Shown here: positions 42,572-64,000 of the stretch, in pieces | How the letters are laid out: the number at the start of each line of letters is the position of its first letter | Position numbering within the stretch: position 1 is the stretch's first letter | NCBI RefSeq assembly: GCF_054482525.1 | Contig: NZ_JBTHVG010000004.1 | DNA length: 64,000 bases | Origin: a plasmid | Strand: one strand, 5' to 3' | Translations under genes and position numbers: made by a program | Notes under the pieces: model-generated | Told to the model about the DNA's origin: nothing | Seen by the model: only the letters and a program-made list of their open reading frames with translations | Database searches by the model: none

Positions 42572-42777
42572 AATAATTCCTGAGCAGTTAAATCAGAATG
42601 GGATATACCGGTGCTCCGGTACAGACAGGATGATGTTTGTTTCCGGCTATACTTGCGTTACCGGAAATAAATGCCAGTGTGGCCAGGTAAATAGCCTCAT
42701 AGTTTACTGAAGGTGATTATTCCTGATACTGGCTGGTTGATGTGTCGTCAGACATAAAACGAATATGAGCGTAATCT

Positions 42778-42910
42778 TTAACGCTCCGCGCCGAATCGAT
42801 CCATGATGGATGACTCGACGATTTATGAATCGAACGTACCGGCGCTTGTCCCTGAAACAGTTCCCGGCCCTCGTCCGGATGACCTGCAATTCAGACAGGC
42901 ACATGTGCCC
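42778..42910 (-). promoter_or_regulatory. conserved tra regulatory module, copy A (upstream of traH)
   Basis: Shares motif 1 (ttaacgctccgcgccgaaNcgatcca) and, about 95 bp away, motif 2 (gcaRttcWgacRRRcaYat, where R is a/g, Y is c/t, W is a/t) with copies at 62171..62297 and 63233..63360. Confidence 0.5.
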
Positions 42911-42965
42911 GTACACTCTTGTATCTTACTGAGTATATCAGAATTTATGTAAATTCAAATATCCT

Positions 42966-43550
42966 CTATGCCTCTTTGTTGTATTTTCCGTCAAGTATGA
43001 GCCGGGTACCATCGTAATGCATGATCAGGGCATCAAGGTACGCCGGTTTGAATTTCTTGCCGAGCCTATCTCTGGCCAGAAATGATAAACAATGATTATG
43101 TGTCATTATTACTATGTTCCTTTTATGAGATTCTCTTGCGATTGATTCAAGCGTCTTATAAAGATCATTATTGCAGTCTGATAAACTGTCCATAACGACG
43201 GGGTCTTTACCGGAGAAGAATTTTGCAGTTTGTATGGTTCTTACCGCATTGCTGGAGTAAATATCATATTCACTGAAGATTGTTGCGAACTTAATACCTT
43301 CCTGCTGTGCTTTCTCTGTACCGGTAATAGTGATTCCGCTTTTATCCGAATAGCATGGCATATCTGAACGGTCGCAACGTTCTCCATGGCGGAAAAGGAA
43401 AATAACGGTGTTATCAGCATTAATTTCTTTTGCCTGTTCTAGGGTGATATCGGGAAGCGAGCTTTTTGCTTTTGTCACTGCAGCTACCAGGAAAACAGAA
43501 AATAAAAGAATGAATGCTGTCTTTGAATAAGAAGAACGTGGTTTCATCAT
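42966..43550 (-). CDS. traG: TraG, histidine-phosphatase-superfamily protein (194 aa, secreted)
   Basis: Signal peptide and RHGER catalytic motif (FLFRHGERCD), similar to Ais/PmrG-like phosphatases. It sits in the traG slot of the R64 order. Confidence 0.65.
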   Translation of the reverse strand: MMKPRSSYSKTAFILLFSVFLVAAVTKAKSSLPDITLEQAKEINADNTVIFLFRHGERCDRSDMPCYSDKSGITITGTEKAQQEGIKFATIFSEYDIYSSNAVRTIQTAKFFSGKDPVVMDSLSDCNNDLYKTLESIARESHKRNIVIMTHNHCLSFLARDRLGKKFKPAYLDALIMHYDGTRLILDGKYNKEA

Positions 43551-43609
43551 GTTATTTAAAATGAATATAAAAATACCCCCGGGTTTAGTGCCGGGGGCGG
43601 GGACAGTAA

Positions 43610-44812
43610 TCAGAAAGTGAACTGAAGTTGTGCCATTGCACCGTAATCGTGGTCAGTTCCTACCAGGCCGGAAACATCGATATGTACGACGTCAAATGGA
43701 GAGATACCAACGCCAGCGGTGAAGGCGCTTCCGGAGTTTGATGCCATGTTCTGACGATAACCGGCACGCAATTGCGCCCATTTCCATGCGTTAAATTCAG
43801 CACCAACACTTGCAAACTGACGTTTGCTGTCAGAAGTGAAGCCACTGGCAGGAGTCAGATCAACGTCAAGAGCAGTGGTAAACAGGTCATTATGCCAGGA
43901 TACACCGGCGGTTGCCTGTGGACGAACTTTGAAGGTTTCTTTAAAGCCATTGACGACTTTAGTATCAATACTGCGTGGAATGATGTTCTGGGCAACAAGA
44001 CCGACAGTCCAGTTGTCATTCAGGTCTGTATAAGCACCAATATCGGCGTTGAATCCGTTTTTCGTGTTGTGGTACTTGTCACCGTCAAAATCGTCTTTGT
44101 CGTAATCACGAACCGTTACGTTGTAGTTAAACAGGTCCACACGCTGATATTTTGGTGTGACGCCAAGAGACCATTTTTGTCCGGCCGTTTCCAGTTCTTT
44201 GGCAAATGAAATTCCGACGTCGGTAATTACAGCTGCACGCCCGAATGCGCGTGAGGTCAGGGCATTCTTATCGACGTCGGTAATTGTTCCATTGGCAACT
44301 TTGTCCAGATAATCCAGGTCTGCATCGTTTACTTTTCCGTTTACGCTGACAGTTCCGTAAGACTTGACCATAAGGGCAAACGGCAGAGTGTCATTTGCCA
44401 TGGCTGCTACAGCTGATACACCTACCTGAGCATCTGCATTGATATTGCGGAATTCCTGCAGACGATGTTTAAGATTTGCCGCTGCCTGTTGTACGCCATG
44501 CTGGTTATCTACAGCACTGTCAAACAAATCCCAGTCATCTTTAACATCATCAGCTTTATTTGATACATCATCAGGATCAGCAACTTGTGCCCCAACAGAC
44601 GGCAGAAGAAGGCTGAAATCATCATTGCTGTTGTGCTTTGTCAGTAAAGCCGGGTTTGCCAGAGGTGCCACACCATAATGGGAAGATGCTACCCCGGTGC
44701 CACCCATTGCATCGTTACGCGCTTCAAAATATGACGTTGCTGCTGCAGCGTTAAAGGAAAATAATACAGCAGATGCAATGATGGTGCGGGTAATATGATT
44801 TTTCTTCATCAT
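43610..44812 (-). CDS. traF: TraF, outer-membrane beta-barrel transfer protein (400 aa)
   Basis: Signal peptide, alternating beta-strand pattern and a C-terminal ...LQFTF outer-membrane signature. Size matches R64 TraF. Confidence 0.7.
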   Translation of the reverse strand: MMKKNHITRTIIASAVLFSFNAAAATSYFEARNDAMGGTGVASSHYGVAPLANPALLTKHNSNDDFSLLLPSVGAQVADPDDVSNKADDVKDDWDLFDSAVDNQHGVQQAAANLKHRLQEFRNINADAQVGVSAVAAMANDTLPFALMVKSYGTVSVNGKVNDADLDYLDKVANGTITDVDKNALTSRAFGRAAVITDVGISFAKELETAGQKWSLGVTPKYQRVDLFNYNVTVRDYDKDDFDGDKYHNTKNGFNADIGAYTDLNDNWTVGLVAQNIIPRSIDTKVVNGFKETFKVRPQATAGVSWHNDLFTTALDVDLTPASGFTSDSKRQFASVGAEFNAWKWAQLRAGYRQNMASNSGSAFTAGVGISPFDVVHIDVSGLVGTDHDYGAMAQLQFTF

Positions 44813-44897
44813 TTAATTTCCTGTTTATCAGAATTTAGACAAAACAACGCTATGACACGGATGTGCCGTAAATTTTTACTTTGGTACTATCTGGTAT

Positions 44898-45722
44898 TTA
44901 CCAGGGTAATAAAGACGTATTAAATAAGCTAACAGGTAGTATTTGCCCTGTAATAAGGTTTCCGGCAAGGCCAGGTCTCAACGTAACGCGTCGCAAAGAC
45001 ATTGTTGTATTCTGCCTGGTTGTATATTCAGTTAACCATTTTCTTTTTTCATCGTTCAGAAGTGTTGGTGATAATGATAGTGCCGGATATATTACAGAGC
45101 CATTTATTTCTTTTTCCTGTCTCAATATTACCCCGCAATATTCTCTTTTCGTGTTTCCTGCGAAGGGGAAACTATGCCAGAAAATAACTTCAGTGTTGCT
45201 GCTATTATTAATAAGCATTCTGAAATTATCAGCAGTATCTGGCCATTCACCGGACAACGCTATCGGATAGTTTTCATGGCCATTCAGCCAGTCCGGATTG
45301 AGATTAAAACATTCAGCAAGATGTTCGAGAGCGTCAGCTGAAAGATAGTCTGCAAGTCTGGCCGGGTCCTGTATAACCGTGGAGCGGATATTCCATGGCG
45401 ACAGCAATGTTGCCAGTAATGGCGCATTTATATCATGCGACAGCATGATGTATTCAATTCTGCTTATTATGTTTCCTGTGGTGTTATCCGCAGGCATAAA
45501 CATATTATGAAGAGCATCCTCAAGCAGGATTCGGGTTAAATCAGCGGTGGATATGGCTAATTGTTCGCTCATTATCCCCAGAACTTCTCTTACCCCTTGT
45601 GGGTAACGGACCTGCAGAGGTGTCGGGTTTATCTGACGACCGTTGATGAGTTTTTCGCCGATTGCTTTTTTGTCCAGCGAGAGCATCATTCGGGCCGCAA
45701 TACCGGTCGTATTCAGTCTCAT
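44898..45722 (-). CDS. traE: TraE (274 aa)
   Basis: Position between rci and traF, as in R64. Confidence 0.55.
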   Translation of the reverse strand: MRLNTTGIAARMMLSLDKKAIGEKLINGRQINPTPLQVRYPQGVREVLGIMSEQLAISTADLTRILLEDALHNMFMPADNTTGNIISRIEYIMLSHDINAPLLATLLSPWNIRSTVIQDPARLADYLSADALEHLAECFNLNPDWLNGHENYPIALSGEWPDTADNFRMLINNSSNTEVIFWHSFPFAGNTKREYCGVILRQEKEINGSVIYPALSLSPTLLNDEKRKWLTEYTTRQNTTMSLRRVTLRPGLAGNLITGQILPVSLFNTSLLPW

Positions 45723-45872
45723 TGTTCCTCCGACTGAAAAAGTCTTTTCAGCTCATGTGGTTATTGTATCTTCGGTGTTTTTTCTGGTGAAACGAATAAT
45801 TTCGATCATGCAGATCGAATGTGTTTGGCGAGTTGTTGCAACTCGCCTTTCTGTATGTGTTTTGAATGATGT

Positions 45873-47027
45873 TTACAGCGGGGTGCTGCCCGGGTTCAGA
45901 GGGCAAATCATAATGTAGTCAGGGTCGTTAACAGGTAACGCTCCGGGAGATGGGACACGTTCGCCTTTCTGTGCTGCAATGGCCAGTGTACGCAACAAAA
46001 CCTCACTGGCGCGGTGAACTGCTTCCTCTTTCGTTGTGGCAGTGACGTGAAGGTTATCAAAATCACCGATCTCAATACGATGCGCTTTCTGCCCATTTTC
46101 TTCATCGATGGTCGTGATATGGGCAGGATACGGCACAAACCATGCTGCCACTTTTTGTGTCTGCCGCCGGCGGGCATCAAGCTTACTGACCAGTTGCCAT
46201 GCACGAAGATGAGTATACCGTTTCAGCATATTCATGGAACGATGTCCTGATATTGCAGCAATCTCCATTACATTCAGGCTACCCAGTTCGAAGAAGCGGC
46301 TTATTGCTTCATGCCGTAGATCGTGAAAATGCAGGTCCTCGATGCGAAGTCGTTGTGTGGCTATTCTCCAGGCATTTTTAAAGCCGGATGCGGTGTAATC
46401 AAAAACATTGCCGTGGAGATTAACGGGCATCATCTGAAGAAAGTTACGGGCACGTCTGGACAGAGGAACATCCCGTGAGTGACCGTTTTTGGTTTCAGGT
46501 AAATGAGCCACACCGTGGCGCAAATCAATGTGTTCCCAACGTAAGGCCAGTATTTCGCCCTGCCGCATGGCTGTTTCAAGGGCAAGATGGAAAATGACAT
46601 ACAACATCAGATTTTTTTCGCGGAAATAGCGAGAAAGGCGACGTTCTTCTGAAGACGTTAGCCGACGATCTCGTCCGGAGGATACTTTCGGCTTGCGAAC
46701 CAGTTCAACCGGGTTAGTACGACAGGTTCCCCATTCAACACGAGCAATATTGAACAGAGATGACAGAAGGGCGAGTTCAAGACGTACAGTATTACCTGTA
46801 ATGGCTTTACCCGTTCGGGGGTTGATTTCTGCTAAACGAACGTCTCTGTATGTAGCAATATCAACGGTTGTTATTTCGTCCATATTCCGAAGGGCAATGG
46901 GATATCGCTTGATAACATTGCTCCGGTAAAACTCCTGTTGATGCCCTTTCTTGTGAACAGAAACTGTTTTCAGGTACTTATCCAGTGCGCGTGACAGGGA
47001 CATTTTACGGATGCGTGGAGACGGCAT
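45873..47027 (-). CDS. rci: Rci, shufflon-specific tyrosine recombinase (384 aa)
   Basis: Catalytic RHEAISRF...[13 protein letters not shown] tyrosine-recombinase motifs. The ATG at 47027 ([20 protein letters not shown]) gives the canonical 384 aa; the ORF track extends it to 47153. Confidence 0.9.
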
Positions 47028-47086
47028 GCTAACCTCAAAAGAGGAAAAAATAATGCCAACAATCATTCTCTGCAAGCGTGCCAATC

Positions 47087-49014
47087 CGGTACCTGGCGTA
47101 AAAGCAATTCTGGTAGTACGGTGATAACTGGTCGTATAGCAAATGGTCAGCAAATACCGCTGCCAACAGGATTTTCTGCCAGTCAGTGCTCATGGAGTGT
47201 GAGCAATGCAGAAAACCCTCAAGGTTGGAAGCCGAATTACTTTGCTGGATCAGTTGCAACTTATGATGCAAATCGAATTGTTAAATGTGGTTTTTATGAT
47301 GAATACAATTTCCATAAAGGGACATTTAGAGCTGATTTAACCGGAAAATGTAGTTATGTCGTCGCGTGTCAGAACTGAGATTAAATTGCTGGCGCTGCTG
47401 GCCTACGTGCCAATCCGGTACCTGGAGAAAGGTAGGATCTGGTGAGCTTCAAATTGCTACAGCACAGGCGACAGGTTGGCGCTTTCCTGGAGCAACAGCT
47501 ACCTGTCCAACTGGAAAACGTGTTACAGGTGGCGGCGGAATATGCACCTCACGAACTGGTTACATATGGCTTACCAGGTCATTCCCATCAGCCAATAACT
47601 CATGGTCGGCTGCGTGCGATACAACCGAAGATCAGAATGGTTCAATAACTGTATATGCCATTTGCCAATAAGCTATTTCAAGCAAGTAATCTTCATAAAG
47701 TAGGACGAATACTGTGTGTAGTTTTTGGCTTGCCAAGTCATCTCGCCGTTAGAGTCAGGCATGTCAATAGGAACGACTTCTGTTTCTGCCATTTCACGCC
47801 CGTCAATACGATAGGTGTTAATACACAGTTTAAACCTCCCTAAGACCTGTGTGTTTTTGGGATATAACGTAAATGTTTTTATATTCGTCCATATCGACGC
47901 TGATGATGATTTCCAGGTACCGGATTGGCACTGGCCTACGTGCCAATCCGGTACCTGGGGCGCTCCTAAAACTCAATTCACAACGCAGACCTACAACATA
48001 GCTAAAAACACTCGTAATTTAAGGCTCGGGGTCCATGCATATTGCTCATGGACTTACCTGAATGGCTCACCCTTTGGTGGTTTTCAACAGGTATATTCCG
48101 ACCAAAACAACGTTTGGTATGTGAGTAATTATGCTTGGGGAAATTATGAGTCTGGTGGGACCATATCAGTCACATGCCTCAATCTTCCTGGTGCTGGAGT
48201 TTAATTAAAGGGGCAACAGTAGGCATCGACATGTTCCTCATCAACACCATCACCAATACCGTACATGCGTGTTCCAGTCATAATGTATCCAGTCGGACAT
48301 TGAATCGGCTTGTAATAGATCGAACCACCACTCTTACCGCCGATAAAGTGATTCATTGCTACGGATGATTTGTACCAATTACATGCTGAGTAATTAATTT
48401 TATTACCCCCTGACCACCGACCGGATTGGCACGTAGGCCAGTGCCAATCCGGTACGTGGAAGACTTCTGGTTCGCTCAATGGTTCTTACACAAACTTAGG
48501 TTCACATAGAGGTTCATTCTCAGGGCGGAATTCAGGGGGCAGTACATTGTTTATTTATGCATCTGGAGGTAATGGAGGATCTGCCGGAGGTGCATGTGCA
48601 AATACATCCCGACTGCAGGGATATGTTGGTGGGACGCTAATTAGCGTGAATGCCAGCAATAACCCTGCATATGGAAAAACAGCCTTTATCAGCTTTGCTG
48701 TACCTGCAGGTACTTCCTATCAGATAACATCCTATCCAACAGAAAATACATCATGTGGTGCCGGGGTATTTTCAGTATTTGGATATCAAACTTAATTGAG
48801 CGTTACACACGACGCAATACAACCTGTCTTATGCTCGTATTTGTACCATTTACGTGAACCTGCTGGGCTCTCAACTACCTGGCAGTAGTGGGCATCCTCT
48901 GCGTTGCCCATTCTGGCAATGGCACAGAAGTCGAATTGCCCCAGATAACCTGTGGTGGAAAGCTGAGTAACTTTGAGTTTTCCACCTATTGTCCTCCACG
49001 TACCGGATTGGCAC
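47087..49014. other. shufflon: multiple-inversion segment bounded and interrupted by seven 19-bp sfx repeats (GTGCCAATCCGGTNNNTGG)
   Basis: sfx copies in direct orientation at 47087, 47407, 47940 and 48441, and in inverted orientation at about 47913, 48414 and 48996. The ORF fragments between them (47121..47378, 47366..47671, 47815..48204, 48201..48479 on the minus strand, 48547..48795) are alternative PilV C-termini. Confidence 0.85.
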
Positions 49015-50096
49015 GAAAGTATTGCCCCTGTATTATCGCGGCCTACAAGGCCGTTAGGCGAACATGATGCGCCAGCAACGGCAGTTCTTTCCAGTTGTAA
49101 GTATTCACCAGTATAAAGGCGACCATCAGCACGAACAGTACCGCCTTTCACCTGACCGCCGGTATAGATGCCCTTGTTGTTTACACTTCGAACCCATGAT
49201 CCGTCGGACATATAAAATCCGCCACCGTGAGTTTCATTGAGCCAGCCTTTGCTGTTACGAGTAATTAACCAACCATTATTACTTCTGATATCACCGCCAG
49301 CGGTGACATTTACGTCAAAGTTTCCGCTATTGCCTTTTACCTGACCGCTGAAAGTGCCATTTACACCATTCACATTGCCGCTGAAATTACCAGTCTGGGC
49401 ATTTACTGCCCCAATGTTATTCAGGTTATTTGATCCCATATCAATGGCCGTGTGCATTTTGTTTAAGTCAGGGCGACCATTGACCTGGAATCTGTAAAGA
49501 CGATCAGTGTCCTCTGCTGCACCACTAAGTTCATCTGTCGATAACAGTACGGCAATATGCCCGTTACCGCTTTTGGCACCATAATTACTTAAAGCTACTG
49601 ACCAGGAACGTAATGCACCTGTGGCTGTTTTGCCGTCCTGGATATATCCACCAAGACCAGTGGTAATATCCTTAGCCATCTGGATAAGTGCTTTCACTGG
49701 ATAAGGGGTGCCACCACTGGATACAACCATTGCCTGTAGTAATTCCGGGTTTTGGGTGTTTCGAACTACATATGCCTGTAACCGCTGCCCCTCGCTGTTT
49801 GTCTCAGTAAAGCCGCTGGACAAAAAGCCGGTATTTTTCAGCATGGTTGTCGTGATAACGGCAGGGGTTGTTGTGGTACTACTGGCCTGGAGAGTTGTGT
49901 AGTTTTTCCCTATATAAGAGCGGGCTGCACTGGCCCAGTTGCTGACAAGACGAGCTTCAGCCTGCCAACCTTTGGTTTTTAAATAGTCCTGCCATATGCC
50001 TGCACCCCAGGCAACTATGATCATAACAATCAATAAAGCCGCGCCAATTTCCAGCGATGCCCAGCCTCGGTCATATTTTTTCATCAGATTACCCAT
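48792..50096 (-). CDS. pilV: PilV, thin-pilus tip adhesin (type IV prepilin-like). The constant region is 49014..50096 and is fused in this isomer to the shufflon segment at 48792..49014.
   Basis: Prepilin leader and N-terminal hydrophobic segment ([29 protein letters not shown]). The reading frame crosses the sfx repeat at about 49000. Confidence 0.85.
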
Positions 50097-50767
50097 AGTG
50101 GTTGATAAAGATTATCCAGTAGCAAAAGGACATGGCCAAGACACAGCCATGGACCCAGTGGGCCTTCTTTATGTCCTTTTATGCACCATGTTGAATGCCA
50201 TAAGACAAATCCTCCTGCGCCCAGCAACACACTCCATATGGCGTTATATAGCCCTGACCATGCGGTAATACCTGCAATAAGCCACAGGTCTCCTGTGCCA
50301 ATATTAAGACGATGGCGGTTAACCAGTTTATGCAGACAGAATAAGACAATTGCGGCAGAGACAATTTCTGTTGCACGGAGCCACCATATATCAGTTGTGA
50401 TTTGTGATAATATTCCAGCGATTAAAAAACGCCTGGTGAATGTACCCGGTAAGAGGCCTGTTAGTGCATCCGTTACTGCCATTTGCAGCATGAACGAAAG
50501 AATAAGAACAGCATGAATACGGTAGATAAGTGGGGATGACGATAAAATAATTAATGCCACAGCTATACTATATAGCCATATTCCTGACAGAACTGCAGTG
50601 TGTGTCTTATACCAGAGATGTTCTGTATCAGATAAAAAATAACGAACTCTGAATAACAGAGTTCGTCCAATAATGGAAAATATGAACATCAATGGGAGGA
50701 TATAAACAGGGGAGAGACTTATGCCTACGATTGTCTGCATTGTCTGCCTCCCTGCCCGGGAAGGCAT
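50084..50767 (-). CDS. pilU: PilU prepilin peptidase (227 aa)
   Basis: Polytopic membrane protein with A24 peptidase-like architecture; position matches R64. Confidence 0.75.
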
Positions 50768-51285
50768 ATCCCTTTCATGTCACGATAAATTCTCCATACT
50801 TTATTAGCATATTGCTCTCTTGTTTCATGTCTGTCCTTACGGAATCCGGCATTGTATGACCCAAGGCAATTCCAGCTGACGCCACATATCTGAAAATGTC
50901 TTGCCAGTATCCAGCTTCCTATATGGATATTAAGACATGGTTTGGTAATTAAATCCTCAGACTTTTTGATTACGCCCATCTTTATAAGCTTTGGAATATG
51001 GGTTGAGTTTATTTGCATCAACCCATAATCCGTACTACTGGCTTTGCCTGTTTTTCTGTCCTTATTTATGTTAATTGCGCCCGGCTTCAATGAAGATTCC
51101 CCGGCAGAAATGGCCTTCAACAATAATGGTTCAATTTGATAGCGTGCGCCGGCGGCGGCAAAGCAATTGTCCCACTTGTTAGTCCAGATTTGTTTGGGGG
51201 CGATGTATGAAGCTCGGGCGGGATAAATAAGAGAACAAAGCAGGATTAATGAAATAAGTCTGAGGGGCACTTTACCCCCGGACAT
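50725..51285 (-). CDS. pilT: PilT lytic transglycosylase (186 aa)
   Basis: SLT-domain motifs (ES...GLMQIN). Confidence 0.8.
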   Translation of the reverse strand: MSGGKVPLRLISLILLCSLIYPARASYIAPKQIWTNKWDNCFAAAGARYQIEPLLLKAISAGESSLKPGAININKDRKTGKASSTDYGLMQINSTHIPKLIKMGVIKKSEDLITKPCLNIHIGSWILARHFQICGVSWNCLGSYNAGFRKDRHETREQYANKVWRIYRDMKGICLPGQGGRQCRQS

Positions 51286-51294
51286 TAAAACTCC

Positions 51295-51909
51295 TTAGCC
51301 ATTGATGGTGAAGATTAGTTTGTTTGTACCGGTGCTGCCATTATCAGCTGTGCATTGCGCACTGGCTTCTTCAGTAGTGACTTTTCCATCACTGTGAGCC
51401 GTACTGTTCAGGGTAATACCGTTAGTTAAACCAGTACGACTGATTTGTGTGGCAATCTGGATACAGGCATCCTGTGGGACTTTTTCATAGGTGACGGTAA
51501 AACCATTGTTGAAACCTGATGTTGAAGCCGGAGCAACAGTTACGGCACCGCCCCATGAGTTATAGAGCGTTGCTGTACCTGATGATGGAGTACCACGCAC
51601 TGTCATGGTCTTGGGTACGCCACCCATCTGAATGAGAGCACCCGTCATTTTGGCTCCACTGGTAAACGTATATCCATCGCTACCTTTTAGCAGCCCCTGA
51701 GTACTTGTGATGATTGTCTGTATGTTCGAACTTTCATTTGCCACACCGGTTCGTGAACGCAACATATACAATCCACCAAAAACAAGGGCAAGTACGATAA
51801 TTACAACAAGTGCTATTGCACCCTGTTCCATAATACCCCAGCCTTTGTCATGAGACGTTTCTTTCTCATTTTTCTTCAGAACGTTAGCATTAATATTTTG
51901 AATTAACAT
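51295..51909 (-). CDS. pilS: PilS, type IVB major prepilin (204 aa)
   Basis: Long leader followed by the hydrophobic N-terminal helix (GWGIMEQGAIALVVIIVLALVFGG). Confidence 0.75.
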   Translation of the reverse strand: MLIQNINANVLKKNEKETSHDKGWGIMEQGAIALVVIIVLALVFGGLYMLRSRTGVANESSNIQTIITSTQGLLKGSDGYTFTSGAKMTGALIQMGGVPKTMTVRGTPSSGTATLYNSWGGAVTVAPASTSGFNNGFTVTYEKVPQDACIQIATQISRTGLTNGITLNSTAHSDGKVTTEEASAQCTADNGSTGTNKLIFTING

Positions 51910-51925
51910 AAATACCTCGTTTTAT

Positions 51926-53011: not shown

Positions 53012-53023
53012 GTTGTTCTCCTG

Positions 53024-54577: not shown

Positions 54578-54587
54578 ATCACATCAC

Positions 54588-55040
54588 TCAGAAAGTAAGG
54601 GTGGTGCCATCACTTAACGTGACGCCAGACAATGAGATCGACTTCACCGTGACGGATGTACCCGGAAGCTGGCTACCAGTGGTGACGCTTGTCTGACGTC
54701 CATCAGCCATGCGAAGAACGGCATGAAGACGTTTATCTTTGCCGTTTATTTCCATAATAACGGGCAATTCCTTTCTGTTTTTAGATGTCGGCTGCTCTGA
54801 AACTGATGGCAAGGAGGCAGTCACACCAGAGAAACCTGAAACAGTTTCTGATGACAGATTAACATCTGATTCTTCGAGTTGTTTCTGTAGCTGTGCGCCC
54901 TGAACTTTTGCCTGTAAAAGAATATTCCGGTTTTGTTGTGCTTCAAGTTCTCCTATTGTGACAAGAGGTTGTGTTGTTGCAAATGAAAAACCAGAGAAGA
55001 AAAATATGGATGGAATAATGAGTAATTTACCTGGACGCAT
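54588..55040 (-). CDS. pilP: PilP (150 aa)
   Basis: Size identical to R64 PilP; signal peptide. Confidence 0.65.
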   Translation of the reverse strand: MRPGKLLIIPSIFFFSGFSFATTQPLVTIGELEAQQNRNILLQAKVQGAQLQKQLEESDVNLSSETVSGFSGVTASLPSVSEQPTSKNRKELPVIMEINGKDKRLHAVLRMADGRQTSVTTGSQLPGTSVTVKSISLSGVTLSDGTTLTF

Positions 55041-56322
55041 ATATATGACCTTCTGAGGAATAACTGAAAGTACCGCCGTTTAATTCAAAATGGATATTGC
55101 TCAGACGAACGCCGGTATCCTGAAATAAAGGGAACAACTCATCAGGATTTACAGGCGTTGATAAACTGAACTGATATTCTTTCCATTTCTGAACAGGGGC
55201 TGGTTCACCATCGTTACCTGGTAATGGTTCCTGTATGGCTATTTCATTAATGGCCGGCGTTAACTGTTTTTTCTGAAACCACGTGAACACCCGCATCAGT
55301 TGTTCTGAGGGGGCAGGGACTGCCTCATCCCTGCGGGGCAGGGAAGGCAGTGGCCGGGTTACAGAAGCCAGGCGTGCACCATCTTTAAGGTTAAAGTCAG
55401 GAATAACATTAAAGATTTCTTTGCTTCTTGCCAGAAAGCCTTCAATAGTTCCTCCTGGCTGTCGTTCGTAAATCAGTGTGAATGTCTCGGGAGTACATGT
55501 TCCACCGGTAAGTTTCCAGCCTTCTAGCGCGACCGGTGATGGTTTTCGAAGGTCCGCGCAGGCTTTCAGAAAATCACTGATTACAGGTTGTGACGCCCAT
55601 GGATGCGGGAGCTCCGGTGGTGGTTCGGGCTTTTTAAACTGTAATCTTGCCCGTGCAGCTATCTCCTCGGCGGTCGGTCCTACATCAGGCTCTGGCTGAG
55701 TCATCCAGAATACTGTGCCTGCGCCGGCTGCTACTAAAAACAGTACGGCAGGAAGTGTGAATTTGCTGCGATTGCCGACAGTAAGTTTGCAACGGCGGAG
55801 GTCTGCTGATGATAACCGGGTAATAATACTTTCCCAGTTATCAGGATGTTCCAGAGACGATACAACCTGCCATTTTTCGGGGGGCTCTTCGTTCATCGCC
55901 AGAAAAAGGCTGACCTTTTGGGCAACGTCGGCATCATTTCCTGATAAGTCAGCCATAACGGCAGGCTGGCCATTAATGGAAGCAAGGAATAAGAGCTCCT
56001 TATCGCTGTACCGGAAGACACCGTATCCATTTCTGACCCATGAGCAGAAAGCCAGTGCCAGGGAAAAATAATGATTGCGTTCTGGCCTGGTCAGTATTCC
56101 TGTGCCGGTAAGGCGGCTGATCTCTCCACGGGAATTTCTGCTGCCTACAGTCACTTTCAGGGAGGTAAGCCGTCTGGGTTTTACATGAGACTTGTGTTTA
56201 TGATGTGAGGGGACGCGCTGTTTTTTTACGACAGGAGTCCATTTAAGACAGGCAGCCCACACGCGATGATTTACTTTAGGATCTGCGAGAAGCACTACCG
56301 GGTTGATATCTTCATCAGCCAT
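55027..56322 (-). CDS. pilO: PilO (431 aa)
   Basis: Size identical to R64 PilO. Confidence 0.7.
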   Translation of the reverse strand: MADEDINPVVLLADPKVNHRVWAACLKWTPVVKKQRVPSHHKHKSHVKPRRLTSLKVTVGSRNSRGEISRLTGTGILTRPERNHYFSLALAFCSWVRNGYGVFRYSDKELLFLASINGQPAVMADLSGNDADVAQKVSLFLAMNEEPPEKWQVVSSLEHPDNWESIITRLSSADLRRCKLTVGNRSKFTLPAVLFLVAAGAGTVFWMTQPEPDVGPTAEEIAARARLQFKKPEPPPELPHPWASQPVISDFLKACADLRKPSPVALEGWKLTGGTCTPETFTLIYERQPGGTIEGFLARSKEIFNVIPDFNLKDGARLASVTRPLPSLPRRDEAVPAPSEQLMRVFTWFQKKQLTPAINEIAIQEPLPGNDGEPAPVQKWKEYQFSLSTPVNPDELFPLFQDTGVRLSNIHFELNGGTFSYSSEGHIYASR

Positions 56323-57997
56323 TATTGCCTCCTGACGGGAAAGTCGGGGTAATGATGATCACAAGCGTGCTGCGTTCATTTTTCCCGGTTTGTGAACCAC
56401 CAAATAATGGATTTGCTGGCGTAAACGTACCGGCTTTACTTGTCGTCGTATTGTTCTGATCGAAACCAGTAACGACAAGTGATTGCCCTTCTTTCAGATT
56501 GACCTTCTGGCTCAGTGAACGCAGTTTGGTATATGGCATTTCGATGTAACTGTTTCCGTCTTTTGACGTAAAGCTACGGATAGTCGGGGGATCAGACAGA
56601 TTAAAGTTCATCTGCAACTGGAGATTGCCTGTTTTCTGAATTAAAGGCAGCAGGGTCATATTGAATCCAGTGGTGATCATGCCCGGTGTTAATGTTGTTG
56701 TTGCCCCTACATCCGTAGTCGTAGTTGTTGCTGACTGGGCGACGTAAACTGTCTGATCTGCCATCTGGATAGGTACCGGCGTCAGGTTTGTGACCGTGCT
56801 TTCTTGTGAAGTTACAACGCTGACATCGCCTTGTTCACTCAGTGCTTTAATCAGAAGGCTGGAACCGCTGAATTTGGCGGCATTCCCTGTTGCCGTATCC
56901 AGAATTGATACGCCTGCAGATGTAGCGCCTGTAAAATCTCCGCTTGCATTGTTCAACGTTGCTCCGGCGGAATGTAGCGATTTGTAAACAAGGTTCCAGT
57001 CCAGACCGAACTGCTCGTTTCTGGTATTGCTGACGCTCAGAACCTGTACGTTCAGGGCTACCTGGCGGTTCATAATACTGTTTTGTTCGTCCACATATCG
57101 TGCGACGGCTTCCTGGACAGCAGGAGTATCAGTGACTGTTAGCGTTGAGCTCGATGCAGATAACCAGTAACGGCCTTTTTCTGGTGTCAGCATCGCTTCA
57201 ATAGTTTTCCGGATGTCTTCATACAGGTCGTATTCCTGACCGACGGTTGTGCTCTGAGAGGACGTAGCATCACCGGATGCTGAGTTATCCTGGCCTCCTG
57301 TTGCCCCCATTGTGCTTGTTGAGCCAGAGCTGACGCTGGAACTGCTGCTGGTTTTGGTGTTCAGCATATGAAGTGGATACGTTCTGGTTTCAGTCAGATA
57401 GAATACAATCCGACCATTATCCATGCGCCAGTACAGACCGCTTCGGCTGGCCATCAAATCCAGAAGACCATTGATATCTCCCTGCCACATGAGGTTATTC
57501 AGCGTTAATGGCTGAGTGGAGGTAGTCATTGTTGTGCTGCCCAGGCTGCTTAACGGCAGACGACCATTTTCATCAGGTGCTGGTAGTGTCCCAGTCATCT
57601 GGCGGGTAGCGCCTCCTTCAAGAGTTGAATTGGCTGCGTCAGGGGTGATGATTACGGGGATGCCGCATACGGCAGTAATACGTTGCCCCAGTTCCTGTAG
57701 AGTGATCTCTCCTTTTCTTGCCTGCGTGATGTAGCAGGCCGGAGCTGTTTGTTTTTTCTCTCTTGATACCTGAGCGACCGGAACAGGGTTTATCCATTGA
57801 TTATCGAGCCAGGTAAGAGCCTGTGATTTGCGGGCAGAAAGGGCTGATACCTTTTCCCGTGCATGTGCTGAGTCCTCCTGTGCTTTTTTCTGCATTTTAT
57901 TGATTTCGCTGAAAGTACATCCGGAGATGGAAAGAGCGACGGCGATCATGCAGGGGAGCACCGCCAGCTTCATTGAACGCTGGTGTGATTTTTTCAT
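56315..57997 (-). CDS. pilN: PilN secretin-family outer-membrane lipoprotein (560 aa)
   Basis: Lipobox LSISGC, a secretin-like C-terminal domain and a Thr/Ser-rich region; size identical to R64 PilN. Confidence 0.85.
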   Translation of the reverse strand: MKKSHQRSMKLAVLPCMIAVALSISGCTFSEINKMQKKAQEDSAHAREKVSALSARKSQALTWLDNQWINPVPVAQVSREKKQTAPACYITQARKGEITLQELGQRITAVCGIPVIITPDAANSTLEGGATRQMTGTLPAPDENGRLPLSSLGSTTMTTSTQPLTLNNLMWQGDINGLLDLMASRSGLYWRMDNGRIVFYLTETRTYPLHMLNTKTSSSSSVSSGSTSTMGATGGQDNSASGDATSSQSTTVGQEYDLYEDIRKTIEAMLTPEKGRYWLSASSSTLTVTDTPAVQEAVARYVDEQNSIMNRQVALNVQVLSVSNTRNEQFGLDWNLVYKSLHSAGATLNNASGDFTGATSAGVSILDTATGNAAKFSGSSLLIKALSEQGDVSVVTSQESTVTNLTPVPIQMADQTVYVAQSATTTTTDVGATTTLTPGMITTGFNMTLLPLIQKTGNLQLQMNFNLSDPPTIRSFTSKDGNSYIEMPYTKLRSLSQKVNLKEGQSLVVTGFDQNNTTTSKAGTFTPANPLFGGSQTGKNERSTLVIIITPTFPSGGNNG

Positions 57998-58010
57998 GAA
58001 TATATCCAGA

Positions 58011-58448
58011 TTAGTTAACGTAGACGACAGAACCAGCAGTAATGCCTGCCGGGGGTGTCAGACCGGTTGCAGTTCCTGATAGCCAGGTGAGTTGCCCGTT
58101 TTGGAAGATCCCTATTAGTGCAGAACCACGACTTTTTGAACGCAAAGTTTCAACAAGTCCTGGTTGTTCAGGCATCCATACCCACAGACGTCCCTGTTGT
58201 AACTGATGTTTAATTCGGGAGTCCGGAGTGACAGGGAGAGCCAGTTTATCTGAAGAAATTACTCCGTCCTGCTGGCCTGATACGTATCTGATATCATTGA
58301 TTCTGTTAGCAATCATTAGTATCTGACTTGCCCATACAGACGCACTTGCATATTGCTGGGCGTTCGTGGTTTCAGACATCTGCTGATTCTGGTAGCTTCC
58401 AGTGATAATCAGAATGGTCAGGCCGACGGCCATGACCAGCCATCCCAT
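58011..58448 (-). CDS. pilM: PilM (145 aa)
   Basis: Size identical to R64 PilM; N-terminal transmembrane segment. Confidence 0.65.
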   Translation of the reverse strand: MGWLVMAVGLTILIITGSYQNQQMSETTNAQQYASASVWASQILMIANRINDIRYVSGQQDGVISSDKLALPVTPDSRIKHQLQQGRLWVWMPEQPGLVETLRSKSRGSALIGIFQNGQLTWLSGTATGLTPPAGITAGSVVYVN

Positions 58449-59515
58449 TAGCGACCATCCCTTGTATCAGAAACTGTAATGATGCACTGCATGCGGGAGG
58501 CCTGTGCGTATAAAGGTTTTTGCGCGGTCCGATATAACTCAAATACCTGCTCCATGGCTGATTCAAATGATCCCCGGAACATCAAAGGCGCATCAAGACG
58601 GTAATCGGTTACAGAAAGTGGCCATATGACCATCCAGTGCGTTGATGCCATGCTTTCGCATTTTGTTTCTTCTGCCCACTTAATAATGTTTTCCCTTAAT
58701 GTAGTGCCTGCCGGCGCACGCCACTCTTTACCCTGAGATACCGGTTTGACAGGTGTCCCGGTCATGAGTGGGATAGACTTGACTGTGGAGCCGGTCGGAG
58801 TCGGGATTGCAGCGGGCGTAGACGGAGATACGCTGTTTCCCCTGAATGGGTTTCGTGGTTTGTTCTGGCTATTTGCTGTCGTTGAAGACTCCGGGGAAGT
58901 GGATGTGGTTACCATGGCTGCTGGCGAGATAGTGGTTGCCGTGTCCTGTGCCGGTGCAGTAGCCGATGTTGTGACGGTCAACGTTTTATTATCCCAGTCC
59001 AGATGGCCCCAGAGGTGTTGTTCTTCCAGCAACCGGTTCAGAGAACGGGTCCACTGATCATTGGCAGACCATGAAACCAGTTTGGTATTCAGTTTGGGCG
59101 TGGCTGCATTCTCTTGTCTGAATTTCCATCCTTCCGGTAGTAATGTTTTTATCCACTGACTGACGGTCCGGTTACGGGCCGTCGGCGATAGTGTTACAGG
59201 GGCGCTACCAGGCTTGCCTGTAATGATTAACCGGGAGAAATTCTGACTTATTGTTGGTGAAGGTAACGGTCGGGATTCGCTTACTGGCTGTGCTGTTTTT
59301 ACTGTCTCTGGCACGCTGACTCTCGGGGGCGGAGTTATTTTAGGTGGAGAAAGTCGTTGTTGCGTAAGTGCCAGGACGCCAGCACTCTCACTGATTTGTC
59401 CGTCAACAAAAACCAGAGCAGGCGTATCTGATGGTGCCACGTTATTGCCGCCGGAAATTCCGGCACAGCCGGACAATAATGACGGCAGTATAAGTGTCAG
59501 ACAGTTTTTTTTCAT
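58448..59515 (-). CDS. pilL: PilL lipoprotein (355 aa)
   Basis: Lipobox LLSGCAG and a Thr/Pro-rich linker; size matches R64 PilL. Confidence 0.7.
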   Translation of the reverse strand: MKKNCLTLILPSLLSGCAGISGGNNVAPSDTPALVFVDGQISESAGVLALTQQRLSPPKITPPPRVSVPETVKTAQPVSESRPLPSPTISQNFSRLIITGKPGSAPVTLSPTARNRTVSQWIKTLLPEGWKFRQENAATPKLNTKLVSWSANDQWTRSLNRLLEEQHLWGHLDWDNKTLTVTTSATAPAQDTATTISPAAMVTTSTSPESSTTANSQNKPRNPFRGNSVSPSTPAAIPTPTGSTVKSIPLMTGTPVKPVSQGKEWRAPAGTTLRENIIKWAEETKCESMASTHWMVIWPLSVTDYRLDAPLMFRGSFESAMEQVFELYRTAQKPLYAQASRMQCIITVSDTRDGR

Positions 59516-59548
59516 AACGGAGACTCCGTGTTCGTATATACGAGTTTG

Positions 59549-60142
59549 TTAATTGATGTGAGGCGGCTGGAGAGGACGAATGACGACTGTCATTCCGTCC
59601 GAATGCAAATGCGGGAAAGACCACTGAAATAAGAGATATATAAAAGGAATTGATAATTTTTCGTACAGACTTGTTTTCCGTGGGTATGTAATAACTGAAA
59701 AACTCAAATCATAAGATTTCAGTCTCTTTATAAGTTTATTTATTCTTGCTGGAGTAAAGAGATGTGAATGCATGACAATGATTTCATCATTATTAATTGC
59801 TTTTGATATCAGAGAAAGCAATACATCCCAGTGTTTCCTCATTGACTTCGGGCAACGTGTGTCAGCATAGGGGCTAAGATGTATAGTTGATTTCTTGCTT
59901 CCCTTTTTCTTCTTCACAAAGAATGTGAAGTCGTATTTAGATGCAGACCTTACAATAAGAAGTACACATCTGAAAAGTAGTGGGAAAATGCAAATCACAA
60001 CCACCACACAGAAATATAACATATAAGGCAATGATAAGTTGTCAGTGTATGGATAACGTAAGTATTGCCATGGGGTAGTGATGTACAGACAAAGCGTACA
60101 CCAAAGCAACCAGAGATATAATGGTACGTTATTATTTTTCAT
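59549..60142 (-). CDS. pilK: PilK (197 aa)
   Basis: AT-rich membrane protein in the pilK slot. Confidence 0.55.
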   Translation of the reverse strand: MKNNNVPLYLWLLWCTLCLYITTPWQYLRYPYTDNLSLPYMLYFCVVVVICIFPLLFRCVLLIVRSASKYDFTFFVKKKKGSKKSTIHLSPYADTRCPKSMRKHWDVLLSLISKAINNDEIIVMHSHLFTPARINKLIKRLKSYDLSFSVITYPRKTSLYEKLSIPFIYLLFQWSFPHLHSDGMTVVIRPLQPPHIN

Positions 60143-60266
60143 GTTGGCTGAGGCAGGCGACTAAAATAACAGACTAAGGAGGATTAACTGTTTAATTCTT
60201 TGGAACAAAAAAATGCAGTTCCTGATCATCACACACCATTGAATAAACATTTTGCTTCGGTTGCGT

Positions 60267-60521
60267 TCATGATAGCCAGTCCTGTAGATGCTGATGGCGG
60301 GAGCTGCTGCCCTTGTGCCAGCGGCAGTGGCTGCCGGGAGCACGCTCCAGTCGGAACAGAAATCGGTTGTCGCGTAGTACCACCACGAGACAGTTATCCG
60401 GCGTGCAGAAACGTCGGGCAAGCTCATCGGGGTCTGTCGGTGTTTTCGTTGAAAACAGCCTGCGTTTGCAGTGTGCGTCGACGACCAGTATTTGCAGTCG
60501 TCCGGGATGTTGCTGTGGCAT
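60267..60521 (-). CDS. small ORF (about 84 aa from MPQQHPGRLQILVVD...), possibly pilI or pilJ
   Basis: In the pilI/pilJ position; which of the two it is cannot be resolved from memory. Confidence 0.35.
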   Translation of the reverse strand: MPQQHPGRLQILVVDAHCKRRLFSTKTPTDPDELARRFCTPDNCLVVVLRDNRFLFRLERAPGSHCRWHKGSSSRHQHLQDWLS

Positions 60522-60692
60522 CAAAGACTCCTTCCGGAACGGGAAAAGAAGCAGCTGTACCGTCATAACTGCACGTACCGGTTGCGAAAAAACGGCACAA
60601 GCGAGTAGTGACAGAAAGAATGTCGGAAACGGCAGGAAGGGCGGTACAGGCTGCGAAGACTGGAAACGGGGTATGCCGGGGATTACACATCC

Positions 60693-61376
60693 TCAGTGTA
60701 ATGTGATAGTCGTCTGCTCCTGTGTTGCACCCCAGACATCTTCTGGCAAGCTGGGCAGCCCGATAAATAGGGTGTGAAAGAGGGTTTCTCTGCGTTCGAT
60801 CCCGAATTGATGTTCGTATCCTCTCACCACCTGAAATCCTTCGTCGGAGAATATTAACTCTGCCGTTTCCAGAAGCTGCATAGTTTTGCGGTGTAGTGGA
60901 GTGATCAGCTGCAACGTAACTGGTGCCCTCATATCGCCTGTCGGTAGAAAACACTCTTCGGTGCGACTTAGTTGTAGCAGATGGCGTTTCCCGGAACAGG
61001 CCCGTTCAATGGATTCATTGAACACCCTCTCAGGCCATGGGCAGACATAAGTGCGCCAGCCTGCTTTCTGTAATTTACCCAGCGCAGCCCGAAAACGAAA
61101 CAACGGACATTCCCCGACAGTGGCAGAGCTGAGAAAGAGCGTATTCAGCGTTCCGATGATGGGAATATTGCGATCTTTTTCGGTCAATGCTTTTAACGCC
61201 ATGATTTCGCCAGGGAGACTACTGAACTCAGGATGTCTGCTGGCACCAGAAAGCCATTCAAGCAGGTAATGCCGTAATCCGGTTTCACTGGTTATATTGT
61301 GGTTTTCCTGTGCCGTTTTCAGGGCATTCAGTGCACACCAGAGCAACTGGCGCACGGGATGTTCTGTCGTGGTCAT
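60693..61376 (-). CDS. hypothetical backbone protein (227 aa) at the head of the pil operon (pilI/pilJ/traD region)
   Basis: Clean ORF. About 250 bp of non-coding sequence plus the traB terminator lie upstream of it, so it probably starts an operon. Confidence 0.45.
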   Translation of the reverse strand: MTTTEHPVRQLLWCALNALKTAQENHNITSETGLRHYLLEWLSGASRHPEFSSLPGEIMALKALTEKDRNIPIIGTLNTLFLSSATVGECPLFRFRAALGKLQKAGWRTYVCPWPERVFNESIERACSGKRHLLQLSRTEECFLPTGDMRAPVTLQLITPLHRKTMQLLETAELIFSDEGFQVVRGYEHQFGIERRETLFHTLFIGLPSLPEDVWGATQEQTTITLH

Positions 61377-61596
61377 GCGAATGTCCTACTGTGAGATGAA
61401 AAGAAGACCGGTATCCGTTCTCTCCGCCACACGTGATGGCACGGGCCGGCCTTTGATAAAACGAATCAATACTCTGGGGTGAAGCCTTTTATTTCTTTCG
61501 CCATTAAGAAATACACGGTTCCATCAAAAGACAGGGGGAGTCCATGGTGGGGATGGCTTCGTGCAGGCTTCACTCCGGAATATTCTCTTGAATTGA

Positions 61597-61627
61597 AAAA
61601 AGCCCGGCCCGAAGGCCGGGAAATACT
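61597..61627 (-). terminator. rho-independent terminator of traB (minus strand)
   Basis: On the minus strand: cccggccttcgggccgggc followed by TTTTTT. Confidence 0.6.
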
Positions 61628-61629
61628 GG

Positions 61630-62163
61630 CTATGGGATGTTTACAAGGCGCTCCATAAAGCCGTGATGTTCGGCATTTGATACCAGTTCCAGGAGCAGGG
61701 ATATCCTCGACTCAGGCTGGAGAGTATTTTCCATTCTGAGGAGATACTGATATTGTGCTTTTGTCAGCCATATGCTGGAAGCCGCATTCAGCTCTTCCCT
61801 GGCTCCCGGATTTAGCACAGGGTCCGGGTAAATCTTCATTAATCCATCAACAATATCTTTATTGACGGGTTTTATTTCACCGCCAAACTTCACGAAATCA
61901 ATGAAGGCGCTATGGCGACGTAATGCCGATACTGGTTGAATGTCAAAATTAGCCAGAATAAAAAAGTACCCTGGAAAAATAGCGAATATTCTTTCACGGT
62001 AACAGCACCTGGAGTCTGCCCGTCTTATCTTTCTTGTTATTAATGGAGTCCATGGTACGACGTTTTGCTCATTCAGCCATGAGAATAAAGATTCTCTGTT
62101 TTTGCCGGCTGTATTATATTGCGCAAGATACCAGTTCCGGTTATTCAGGTGTTCTATATTCAC
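61630..62163 (-). CDS. traB: TraB-like NusG/RfaH-family transcription antiterminator (about 177 aa)
   Basis: NGN-domain signature (NRNWYLAQYNTAGKN...IFAIFPGYFFI) as in RfaH/ActX paralogs. Monocistronic, with its own terminator. The start is uncertain (GTG at 62163 or TTG at 62184). Confidence 0.65.
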   Translation of the reverse strand: MNIEHLNNRNWYLAQYNTAGKNRESLFSWLNEQNVVPWTPLITRKIRRADSRCCYRERIFAIFPGYFFILANFDIQPVSALRRHSAFIDFVKFGGEIKPVNKDIVDGLMKIYPDPVLNPGAREELNAASSIWLTKAQYQYLLRMENTLQPESRISLLLELVSNAEHHGFMERLVNIP

Positions 62164-62170
62164 GAAGTTC

Positions 62171-62297
62171 AACGCTCCGCGCAAAACCGATCCATGATGG
62201 ACGATTTTGCGATGTCAGGCGAATATGCTAAATCATATGTCTGAAGCAGTGTCCAGCCCATATCTGGATAAACTGCAGTTCTGACAGGCATATAACC
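62171..62297 (-). promoter_or_regulatory. conserved tra regulatory module, copy B (5' leader of traB)
   Basis: aacgctccgcgcaaaaccgatccatgatgg, and about 95 bp away ctgcagttctgacaggcatat. Confidence 0.5.
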
Positions 62298-62604
62298 AGC
62301 AGACTCTAGTACGTTCTGTATCGGTGATTTGGCGAACTCACAGATAAAGAACGGCTAAGCACTAATATCAGCAATACAGTGGCACAGTATTGTGATACGC
62401 GAAATAAAACATCAGCACGTCAGTTCAGAGTAAGGTCGCCATATATCGGGCATGAGCCAGATACAAATAATTGGGACACCGTCTGAAGTGATTTGCTTTA
62501 TTAAAGTAACTTGTGCTTGGTGTTTATGTTTATCAATTTGGGATCGCCTGTAAAGTGCAAAATGCAATTTCCATGAAAGTGTCCCCTTTAATGGGGACAC
62601 CTGT

Positions 62605-62913
62605 TCACATTTTTTCGTTTTCTTTAGCTGTATTGCTAATCATGAAAACGAACGTTCGCATCAGCACAGCAGAGCGAAGTGCATCATATCCTTCCAGATT
62701 TAAGTTCTTCAGGCTTCGCTTCAGGTAGGTTCGTACCGTTTCGGGAGAAAGCCGACAGTTCTGAGCAATGGCGTCGTAAGGAACACCCATTGCGTAAAAA
62801 ACGCAGACTTTAAGCTGGTTTGTTGATAGCTCGGGAAACATGCCTTCCAACAGAGTGATGGCCGGGAGTTTCTGTATCAGTTGAGGTGACATAGCAAAGG
62901 TCTCCGATGACAA
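62605..62913 (-). CDS. LuxR/FixJ-type HTH transcriptional regulator (102 aa), putative tra activator
   Basis: C-terminal LuxR HTH (LSTNQLKVCVFYAMGVPYDAIAQNCRLSPETVRTYLKRSLKNL). A palindrome GTGTCCCC-N6-GGGGACAC lies just past the stop. Confidence 0.6.
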   Translation of the reverse strand: MSSETFAMSPQLIQKLPAITLLEGMFPELSTNQLKVCVFYAMGVPYDAIAQNCRLSPETVRTYLKRSLKNLNLEGYDALRSAVLMRTFVFMISNTAKENEKM

Positions 62914-63232
62914 CTAAAAACGCTATCACTGAGTTCCTACGCTCATTGGTGATAGCCCAGACGGGGGTAGGAATACCGGCGTCATCGGAAACCGGCCAGG
63001 CTAATGCCTGCCCCGCCTGAGCTACCATAGATGACGACAAGAAATACAAGTTCCTGTCTTTATGGTATGGCAAAAAACGACGCCAAATGAAGAAATTAAC
63101 TTCTGCGCCGACGATGACTACGCGGGTTCCTACGCCCGATCACAGTTTTGCCTGTGACCAGTAAAGGGTACTTAGTATAACGCACCGAGTCAACTAACAG
63201 CTTAAAAAACATACAAAAAAGCGTCAAAACTT

Positions 63233-63360
63233 AACGCTCCGCGCCGAAGCGATCCAGGCGTGATGCTTCTGCTTTGTGGCGTTCGAACATGCTGGTCCAT
63301 ATGCACGAAACGGTGTCTGACCCTCGTCCAGACAATCCGCAGTTCTGACGAACATATGAA
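63233..63360 (-). promoter_or_regulatory. conserved tra regulatory module, copy C (upstream of the LuxR-type gene)
   Basis: ttaacgctccgcgccgaagcgatcca, and about 90 bp away ccgcagttctgacgaacatat. Confidence 0.5.
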
Positions 63361-63950: not shown

Positions 63951-64000
63951 GAATACGGGTAAAGTATAATGAAACCGTACCAGAGATTCAACCCTGTGCA

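Follow-up and report, generated by a model that had tools for sequence, protein, structure and literature searches.

Here, we analysed a 64,000-nucleotide stretch of plasmid DNA (contig NZ_JBTHVG010000004.1; hereafter 'the window') and found that it carries three homologous copies of a structured module of about 150 nt, which most likely serves as a leader for the recruitment of a NusG paralogue. The window belongs to an IncI1-type conjugative plasmid with 99% identity over 22 kb to hundreds of Escherichia coli, Salmonella and Shigella plasmids, and the minus strand carries its tra and pil genes as well as all module copies. The presumed trans-acting partner of the module is TraB, an RfaH/PrfaH-like NusG paralogue encoded immediately downstream of one of the copies. 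The copies, alike over ~150 nt in repeat and alignment analyses and then by a covariance model, are the following:

42777-42924, minus strand: module copy A, flanked by the traG stop (42966) and traH (ATG at 42571); covariance-model match of 126.7 bits, E 7e-35
62168-62312, minus strand: module copy B, within the 5' untranslated leader of traB; covariance-model match of 122.5 bits
63230-63377, minus strand: module copy C, upstream of the Hft region with its C4-like RNA and of traA; covariance-model match of 141.4 bits

An initial annotation of this DNA had described three minus-strand repeats, defined by two short motifs (motif 1 and motif 2) and located just upstream of tra genes, and three such copies are indeed present. 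The motif-1 pattern (GGATCGNTTNNGCGCGGAGCGTT) has exactly three sites in the 64-kb window, a result obtained in 0 of 100 shuffles, and motif 2 is found within 3 mismatches in copies A and B (chance expectation 0.01) and at 4 mismatches in copy C. While both motifs occur at all three sites, the homology extends over the whole module and not just the motifs, and the motif-1 consensus quoted at the time fits copies A and C, but not copy B, which differs at two more positions (gcgcAAaaC). The gene context holds for copy A, whose end lies about 205 nt from the traH ATG, and for copy B, in which an invariant box ends 7 nt ahead of the traB GTG (62163), but not for copy C, which is separated from traA by ~340 nt filled by the Hft region and the C4-like RNA. 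The covariance model detected no fourth copy in the window. Each copy is found at at least 95% identity in about 1,400-1,450 plasmid records, and among the matches listed no annotated feature lies under the module copies. None of the three copies has a match in Rfam 15, JUMPstart included, be it at the gathering threshold or at E up to 10, and in the searchable literature we found neither a description of the module nor one of a TraB target.

The module has a covariation-supported RNA-type fold. RNAalifold, applied to 16 non-redundant sequences, of which eleven were orthologues of the traB leader, one was copy A and four were variants of copy C, yielded a consensus fold with 36 pairs, which is made up of these helices:

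P0: GAGnnn (from the conserved TACAAGAG box) with nnnUUC (from the conserved UAUGUUCG)
P1: 5' arm identical to motif 2, paired with ...CAGRCAYAUG ~50 nt downstream
P1b: extends P1 inward
P2: apical hairpin
P4: GAAUC-AUCC-[loop]-GGAU-C-GAUUC
P5: 4-bp mini-hairpin within the invariant box

In the window, the two larger parts of the fold are located as follows:

42832-42918, minus strand: copy A domain I (P0-P1-P1b-P2), from the consensus fold and covariation; the minimum-energy fold agrees (z = -3.4)
42793-42816, minus strand: copy A hairpin P4, GAGUCAUCCA-UCA-UGGAUCGAUUC
62221-62306, minus strand: copy B domain I (P0-P2)
62184-62207, minus strand: copy B hairpin P4
63285-63371, minus strand: copy C domain I (P0-P2)
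63246-63269, minus strand: copy C hairpin P4 (GAAGC...GCUUC)

In an independent count, paired cells made up 92%, compared to 30-41% when the partners were slid by 1-3 columns. Changes on both sides were observed for 21 of the 36 pairs (5-9 in the slid controls), and the covariation score of 0.434, against at most 0.117 in the slid controls, was reached by none of 500 shuffles. Helices P0, P1, P2 and P4 contain at least 4 compensated pairs each; in P4 of copies A, B and C, position 7 reads U-A, U-G and G-C and position 10 reads G-C, A-U and G-C. P5, with only 3-4 bp, is invariant and therefore without covariation evidence. Since G-U cells (76) exceed A-C cells (10), the fold belongs to the tra-sense strand, i.e. 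to the transcript or the non-template DNA strand. Single-sequence folds of copies A, B and C recover the consensus fold (z from -2.2 to -3.4). Conservation across lineages also extends to two unpaired stretches, YUACAAGAG at the 5' edge (62304-62312 in copy B; UACAAGAG) and UCAGAAC in the internal loop of P1 (62277-62283). A larger hairpin in motif 1 (CGCTTCG-GCG-CGGAGCG) was also considered; it is present in copy C, but conserved neither in the other copies nor in other lineages, and was rejected.

The module is closed by a 12-nt box (GCGCGRAGCGTT), the core of motif 1, which together with the GGATC just upstream stays fixed while the surroundings drift. Variation within the box is limited to the middle loop base (GGA or GAA), and the conserved nucleotide pattern reads GGATC[G/A], a variable 5-6 nt and [G]CGCG[G/A]AGCGTT. 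Even with a changed pairing partner, the GGATC, a Dam site of the P4 3' arm, does not vary. The boxes and the hairpins overlapping them are located as follows:

42780-42791, minus strand: copy A box, GCGCGGAGCGTT
62171-62182, minus strand: copy B box
63233-63244, minus strand: copy C box
42767-42786, minus strand: copy A terminator-like hairpin (GAGCGU..ACGCUC), which overlaps the box in its 3' half
63218-63240, minus strand: copy C hairpin resembling an intrinsic terminator, with a U tract after it; overlaps the box in its 3' half

The box's 3' half, GAGCGU, doubles as the 5' arm of the terminator-like hairpin in copies A and C. In copy B, the terminator is absent and the same bases pair with CUUCGU in a GCGGAG/CUUCGU hairpin over the traB GUG; between box and traB start (62163-62170) there is no Shine-Dalgarno sequence. 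The distance from the end of P4 to the U of GCGUU in the box is 11-12 nt. Such a spacing is known from hairpin-stabilised pauses of the his type, and the arrangement of P4 and box would thus have the geometry of a hairpin-stabilised pause. The box itself can form a C-G-C[G-N-A]G-C-G mini-hairpin, and in DNA, mini-hairpins of the GNA-triloop type with a closing C-G pair are very stable.

Diverged plasmids were gathered with TraB as query and show the following TraB identities to the window:

IncK-type plasmid: 65%
Salmonella diarizonae plasmid: 61%
Citrobacter/Enterobacter plasmids: 53-55%
Klebsiella plasmid: 48%

The initial annotation had linked the repeats, as a cis element, to TraB and had named conservation in related plasmids as a check. 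Both are borne out, as the module is found upstream of traB in all diverged lineages examined, with the box 5-8 nt from the traB start (six lineages). The Citrobacter, Klebsiella and Salmonella plasmids hold a single copy, at traB, and the covariance model detected no copy upstream of their traH or traA homologues, while the IncK plasmid examined carries copies B and A and has neither traA nor copy C. Given its presence at traB in all lineages, and as sole copy in the distant ones, the traB leader is the ancestral site of the module, and copies A and C are duplications seen in IncI1/IncK-type plasmids. Species-representative genomes and metagenomes included, the collections searched gave no more than about six independent TraB lineages, and paralogues do not count as independent samples. 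Matches of the box pattern in viral contigs (52) were all weak by the covariance model and hence due to chance. The Citrobacter and Klebsiella plasmids contain, within the module, an upstream ATG whose frame is that of traB (L005, 2415-2445; L007, 19971-20003), and in one IncK record the annotated traB coding sequence stretches back across the whole module (L003, 19866-20507), probably an annotation artefact.

Judged by its sequence, TraB is a full-length RfaH-like protein. It matches the Pfam NusG NGN domain (22.3 bits) and the NCBIfam models for RfaH (E 7.7e-11, below the family cut-off) and LoaP (E 0.003), shares colinear 22% identity with E. coli RfaH over residues 9-168 and has IncX3 PrfaH as its closest solved structure (PDB 9ik0, E 1e-11). 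The residues by which RfaH contacts its ops element are not conserved in TraB (K10 vs N, H20 vs W, R73 vs S), and AlphaFold, given TraB as a single sequence, reached a predicted local distance difference test score (pLDDT) of 38. Published work established that traBC is essential for transfer and that transcription of pilV, pilS and pilT as well as conjugation require TraB (PMC5013300). For TraC (227 aa), the second essential regulator, no Pfam, NCBIfam or PDB relative was found. Reviews describe the function and recruitment mode of plasmid NusG paralogues as unknown and still list them as untested up to 2021; the only site mapped is that of IncX3 PrfaH, in 2025.

How might such a leader work? 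We regard it as an evenly balanced proposition that the module is a TraB-loading antitermination leader, in which RNA hairpins cause a pause and the box is read on the non-template strand. The box suggests itself as the TraB site because TraB is RfaH-like and nearest to PrfaH, which binds a hairpin in the 5' untranslated region (5' UTR) of its own gene. Transcription of each copy would start at a promoter further upstream and run in the tra direction, and the transcript would fold into the long bipartite hairpin domain P0-P2, then P4 and then the box. RNA polymerase would slow down at the box, with P4 spaced as in a hairpin-stabilised pause, and the box on the non-template strand could then form its C-G-closed GNA-triloop mini-hairpin, a counterpart of the RfaH ops hairpin and the PrfaH GC-stem hairpin. 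TraB would bind the box and render the polymerase resistant to termination, and the modified polymerase would read through both the terminator-like hairpin that follows the box in A and C and the long pil/tra operons. In copy B, where the box takes the place of a Shine-Dalgarno sequence 5-8 nt before the start, TraB may in addition feed back on its own translation. Binding by TraB, the pause, recognition of the DNA strand rather than the RNA and antitermination are thus the steps that we infer.

Several points weigh against this proposal. The link between TraB and the module is one that we infer, and TraC could be the real partner instead. The resemblance between motif 1 and the ops element, as put forward in the initial annotation, does not stand at the sequence level: the edit distance between box and ops is 3-4, at which ~200 sites per window are expected by chance and the same number is obtained in shuffles, and canonical ops does not occur in the 64-kb window beyond chance; the idea survives on context, invariance and hairpin potential only. 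The predicted DNA mini-hairpin of the box (-1.9 to -2.1 kcal/mol, ViennaRNA) is no more stable than that of shuffled sequences. A bare DNA site would not need ~100 nt of covarying RNA, which implies that part of the function is exerted at the RNA level. More distant lineages have the traB copy only, and the role of the module there may be confined to traB expression. Finally, according to Poidevin et al. 2018, a traB::lacZ fusion spanning only the region from the traA stop to the traB start, with the native leader but in absence of the traB gene, was expressed; if the reporter host was free of pESBL, copy B is not an absolute block.

The main alternative, possible albeit doubtful, is a riboregulator acting at the RNA level, with a folded RNA that would be bound by TraB or TraC (as in the case of LoaP) or act alone (as HK022 put and Bacillus EAR). 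The P5/box hairpin would exclude the downstream hairpin, i.e. the terminator in copies A and C and the occlusion of the start codon in copy B, and stabilisation of P5 would lead to read-through or translation. The strong RNA-type covariation with its many G-U pairs is in line with this explanation, and so is the double use of one stretch in A, B and C, as 3' arm of P5 and as 5' arm of the downstream hairpin. In LoaP leaders, a small RNA hairpin is found together with a pause and a terminator (PMC12691694), and the conserved unpaired UACAAGAG at the 5' end and the UCAGAAC internal loop suggest RNA contacts. However, TraB is nearer to the DNA-reading RfaH and PrfaH than to LoaP by the NCBIfam E values given above, P5 never varies, so that covariation gives no sign of its formation in RNA, and no antitermination RNA in Rfam matches the module. 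Rather tentatively, both ideas may be combined: the module could represent a new class of structured antitermination RNA of Gram-negative conjugative plasmids, ~150 nt in length, which acts with TraB, and perhaps TraC, and joins RNA recruitment as known for LoaP and lambda N to the DNA hairpin of RfaH in one composite signal, copied to three sites as a feed-forward loop from traA via traB to pil/tra.

It appears improbable that copies A and C are instead genes for trans-acting small RNAs of ~150 nt, ended by the hairpin after the box and pairing e.g. with pilU mRNA. An inverted copy of motif 2 (ATTCCTGACAGAACTGCAG) lies on the plus strand at 50580-50598 inside pilU and agrees in 17 of 19 bases (chance expectation ~0.01 per window); the pilU mRNA is thus complementary to the 5' arm of P1 of the module RNA. 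This complementarity, the terminator-like hairpins directly after A and C and preliminary hfq results hinting at small RNAs, as mentioned by the authors of PMC5801416, speak for such genes. Nevertheless, the ancestral copy B lacks a terminator and continues straight into traB, motif 2 is sequestered within P1, in the IncK relative, with a motif 2 of its own, the pilU site was not seen, and no σ70-type promoter consensus was found adjoining copies A or B.

The same missing consensus bears on a further explanation, which we consider very improbable: a double-stranded DNA control region, in which motif 2 would be a promoter, a point that the initial annotation had proposed to check, or an operator for TraA or TraC ahead of three transcription units. 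Its position upstream of genes would fit, and TraA is a σ70-region-4/LuxR-type helix-turn-helix protein that activates traB. In contrast, compensatory, strand-specific changes mark the element as being read as a single strand, and motif 2 turned out to be the 5' arm of the covarying helix P1. To place the published reporter constructs, the primers of Poidevin et al. 2018 were mapped onto the window. In that study, the traB::lacZ construct named 'P1' (~62155-62503), which contains all of copy B and ~190 bp upstream, was inactive, while traB::lacZ activity and the response to TraA required 54 bp (62551-62604) located ~240 bp upstream of the module. As the construct with copy B is inactive and activity requires the upstream segment, copy B is a leader element and not a promoter. 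Within the 54-bp segment, directly after the traA stop, lies a perfect palindrome (GTGTCCCC-ATTAAA-GGGGACAC, 62583-62604), of which a half-site recurs near 62472-62479; it is a candidate operator for TraA, or a candidate traA terminator.

The initial annotation had also read motif 1 as a conserved 8-codon open reading frame (mini-ORF), with synonymous changes as a possible sign of selection on the peptide. Its start and/or stop are gone in five of eight lineages or copies: the ATG is absent in copy C (CTG, as already noted then), Salmonella (CTG), IncK (GGG) and Klebsiella, and the stop in IncK, Citrobacter and Klebsiella, in the latter two of which the frame runs into traB, whereas IncK shows a 1-nt deletion. 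The taa/tga difference, counted as a third-position change, concerns the second codon position, and the variable third positions covary with the upstream arm of P4. Leader-peptide attenuation via the mini-ORF is therefore of next to negligible probability and already contradicted by the comparative data: copies A and B do contain an ATG...stop frame, with the stop in B 5 nt before the traB GTG, but start, stop or frame are lost across lineages, no Shine-Dalgarno sequence precedes the mini-ORF and P4 covariation accounts for all of its variable positions.

The genes adjoining the module copies and the end of the window are arranged as follows:

42113-42571, minus strand: traH, ATG at 42571
42966-43550, minus strand: traG, stop at 42966
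60693-61376, minus strand: traC
61630-62163, minus strand: traB, GTG start at 62163
62605-62892, minus strand: traA
from 63885: repZ leader, with an Rfam match to the repZ pseudoknot (63885-64000) cut by the window end

Between copy C and traA, the published high-frequency-transfer region 'Hft' of pESBL (62915-63184, minus strand) corresponds to an immI-like cassette of phage P1. It contains the C4 antisense RNA of Rfam (62945-63032, 77.5 bits), a match resembling the c4-a1b1 target (63119-63171, E 4e-6) and an isrK-like match (63073-63158), and is overlapped by the ORF Hp1 (62810-63073), which matches Pfam Phage_ASH. By analogy, this suggests that traA might be repressed by a C4-type RNA, as is the ant gene of P1, which would explain the ~50-fold derepression of traA by transposon insertions in Hft; in the literature, we found no paper linking Hft to a C4-type RNA. 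The Hft constructs of Poidevin et al. begin at ~63186, leave out copy C and still drive traA. It follows that the traA promoter must be within Hft and that copy C forms a unit of its own further upstream. A palindrome (GTTACACAA-N8-TTGTGTAAC, 63386-63411) lies just upstream of this copy, which a minus-strand σ70-like promoter match at 63514-63542 could drive, and the stretch 63440-63600 is unusually rich in GATC sites. Elsewhere in the window, Rfam matches two sok antitoxin RNAs (17292-17449 and 18713-18870) and an AgrB-like antisense RNA (19495-19582), and the shufflon sfx repeats (GTGCCAATCCGGTACCTGG, 19 bp, inverted and direct) lie at 47069-49015 between rci and pilV, as expected for IncI1.

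IncI1 and related plasmids are major carriers of ESBL (extended-spectrum beta-lactamase) and AmpC resistance genes, and their transfer needs traB and traC. The module is a concrete candidate target of TraB with a defined box and fold, and makes the mechanism of TraB directly testable. Its copies mark control points before the region controlling traA, at traB and at the start of the traH-side tra operon, three in all. It also provides a target by which conjugation could be blocked and adds a covariation-supported RNA motif without Rfam entry.

Among known systems, PrfaH (ActX) of IncX3 plasmids is a plasmid-borne RfaH-like NusG paralogue essential for conjugation, as is TraB, and its cis element likewise belongs to the 5' UTR of the gene for the paralogue itself, where the transfer operon starts. 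PrfaH binds a GC-stem hairpin of the non-template strand in its own 5' UTR, and the downstream virB operon is activated in a PrfaH-dependent manner (PMC11880322, 2025); a GC-stem mini-hairpin on the non-template strand is a likeness that is only predicted for the IncI box. The box sequences are unrelated (TCGGGGTCATCCGAG in IncX3, where the leader was read directly, vs GCGCGRAGCGTT here), and the IncX3 box is 24 nt away from the ATG, an interval that holds a normal Shine-Dalgarno sequence, whereas the IncI box lies 5-8 nt from the start without one. Unlike in IncX3, the IncI box is preceded by ~130 nt of covarying RNA and occurs three times per plasmid, and its binding by TraB is presumed.

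With RfaH, ops and JUMPStart of E. coli, the module shares the factor family and an element in the transcribed leader, on the non-template strand and in sense orientation. The core of the box aligns with ops when one base is deleted (CGCGG-AGCGT vs GGCGGTAGCGT), and a hairpin of the box, closed by C-G, could have a sheared G-A pair and one base flipped out. Yet the box departs from the ops consensus GGCGGTAGnnTG, its best alignment to GGCGGTAGCGTG drops T6, the base read by RfaH, and the likeness is at chance level, in the absence of an Rfam JUMPstart match.

The LoaP systems dfn and mln (PMC12691694) also have a NusG paralogue beside the target operon and combine hairpin, pause and leader terminator in a layout as in copies A and C. 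A terminator-like hairpin downstream of the putative recruitment element, in the place of the terminator of LoaP leaders, is present at 42767-42786 and 63218-63240, but absent in copy B. LoaP reads a small UNCG tetraloop hairpin as RNA; no UNCG hairpin was found in the module, which instead has a 150-nt multi-helix fold and an RfaH-like factor. HK022 put, Bacillus EAR and conAn (PMC8191782) are structured RNAs in or ahead of very long operons, in the case of conAn a conjugation operon, and the internal copy A recalls the position of EAR inside its operon. None of them matches the module in sequence or structure by Rfam, a NusG paralogue is always found immediately downstream here, and autonomous action would be suggested by analogy only. 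Compared to all these systems, the unusual traits of the module as a putative NusG-paralogue recruitment leader are its large covarying RNA domain and its triplication within one plasmid.

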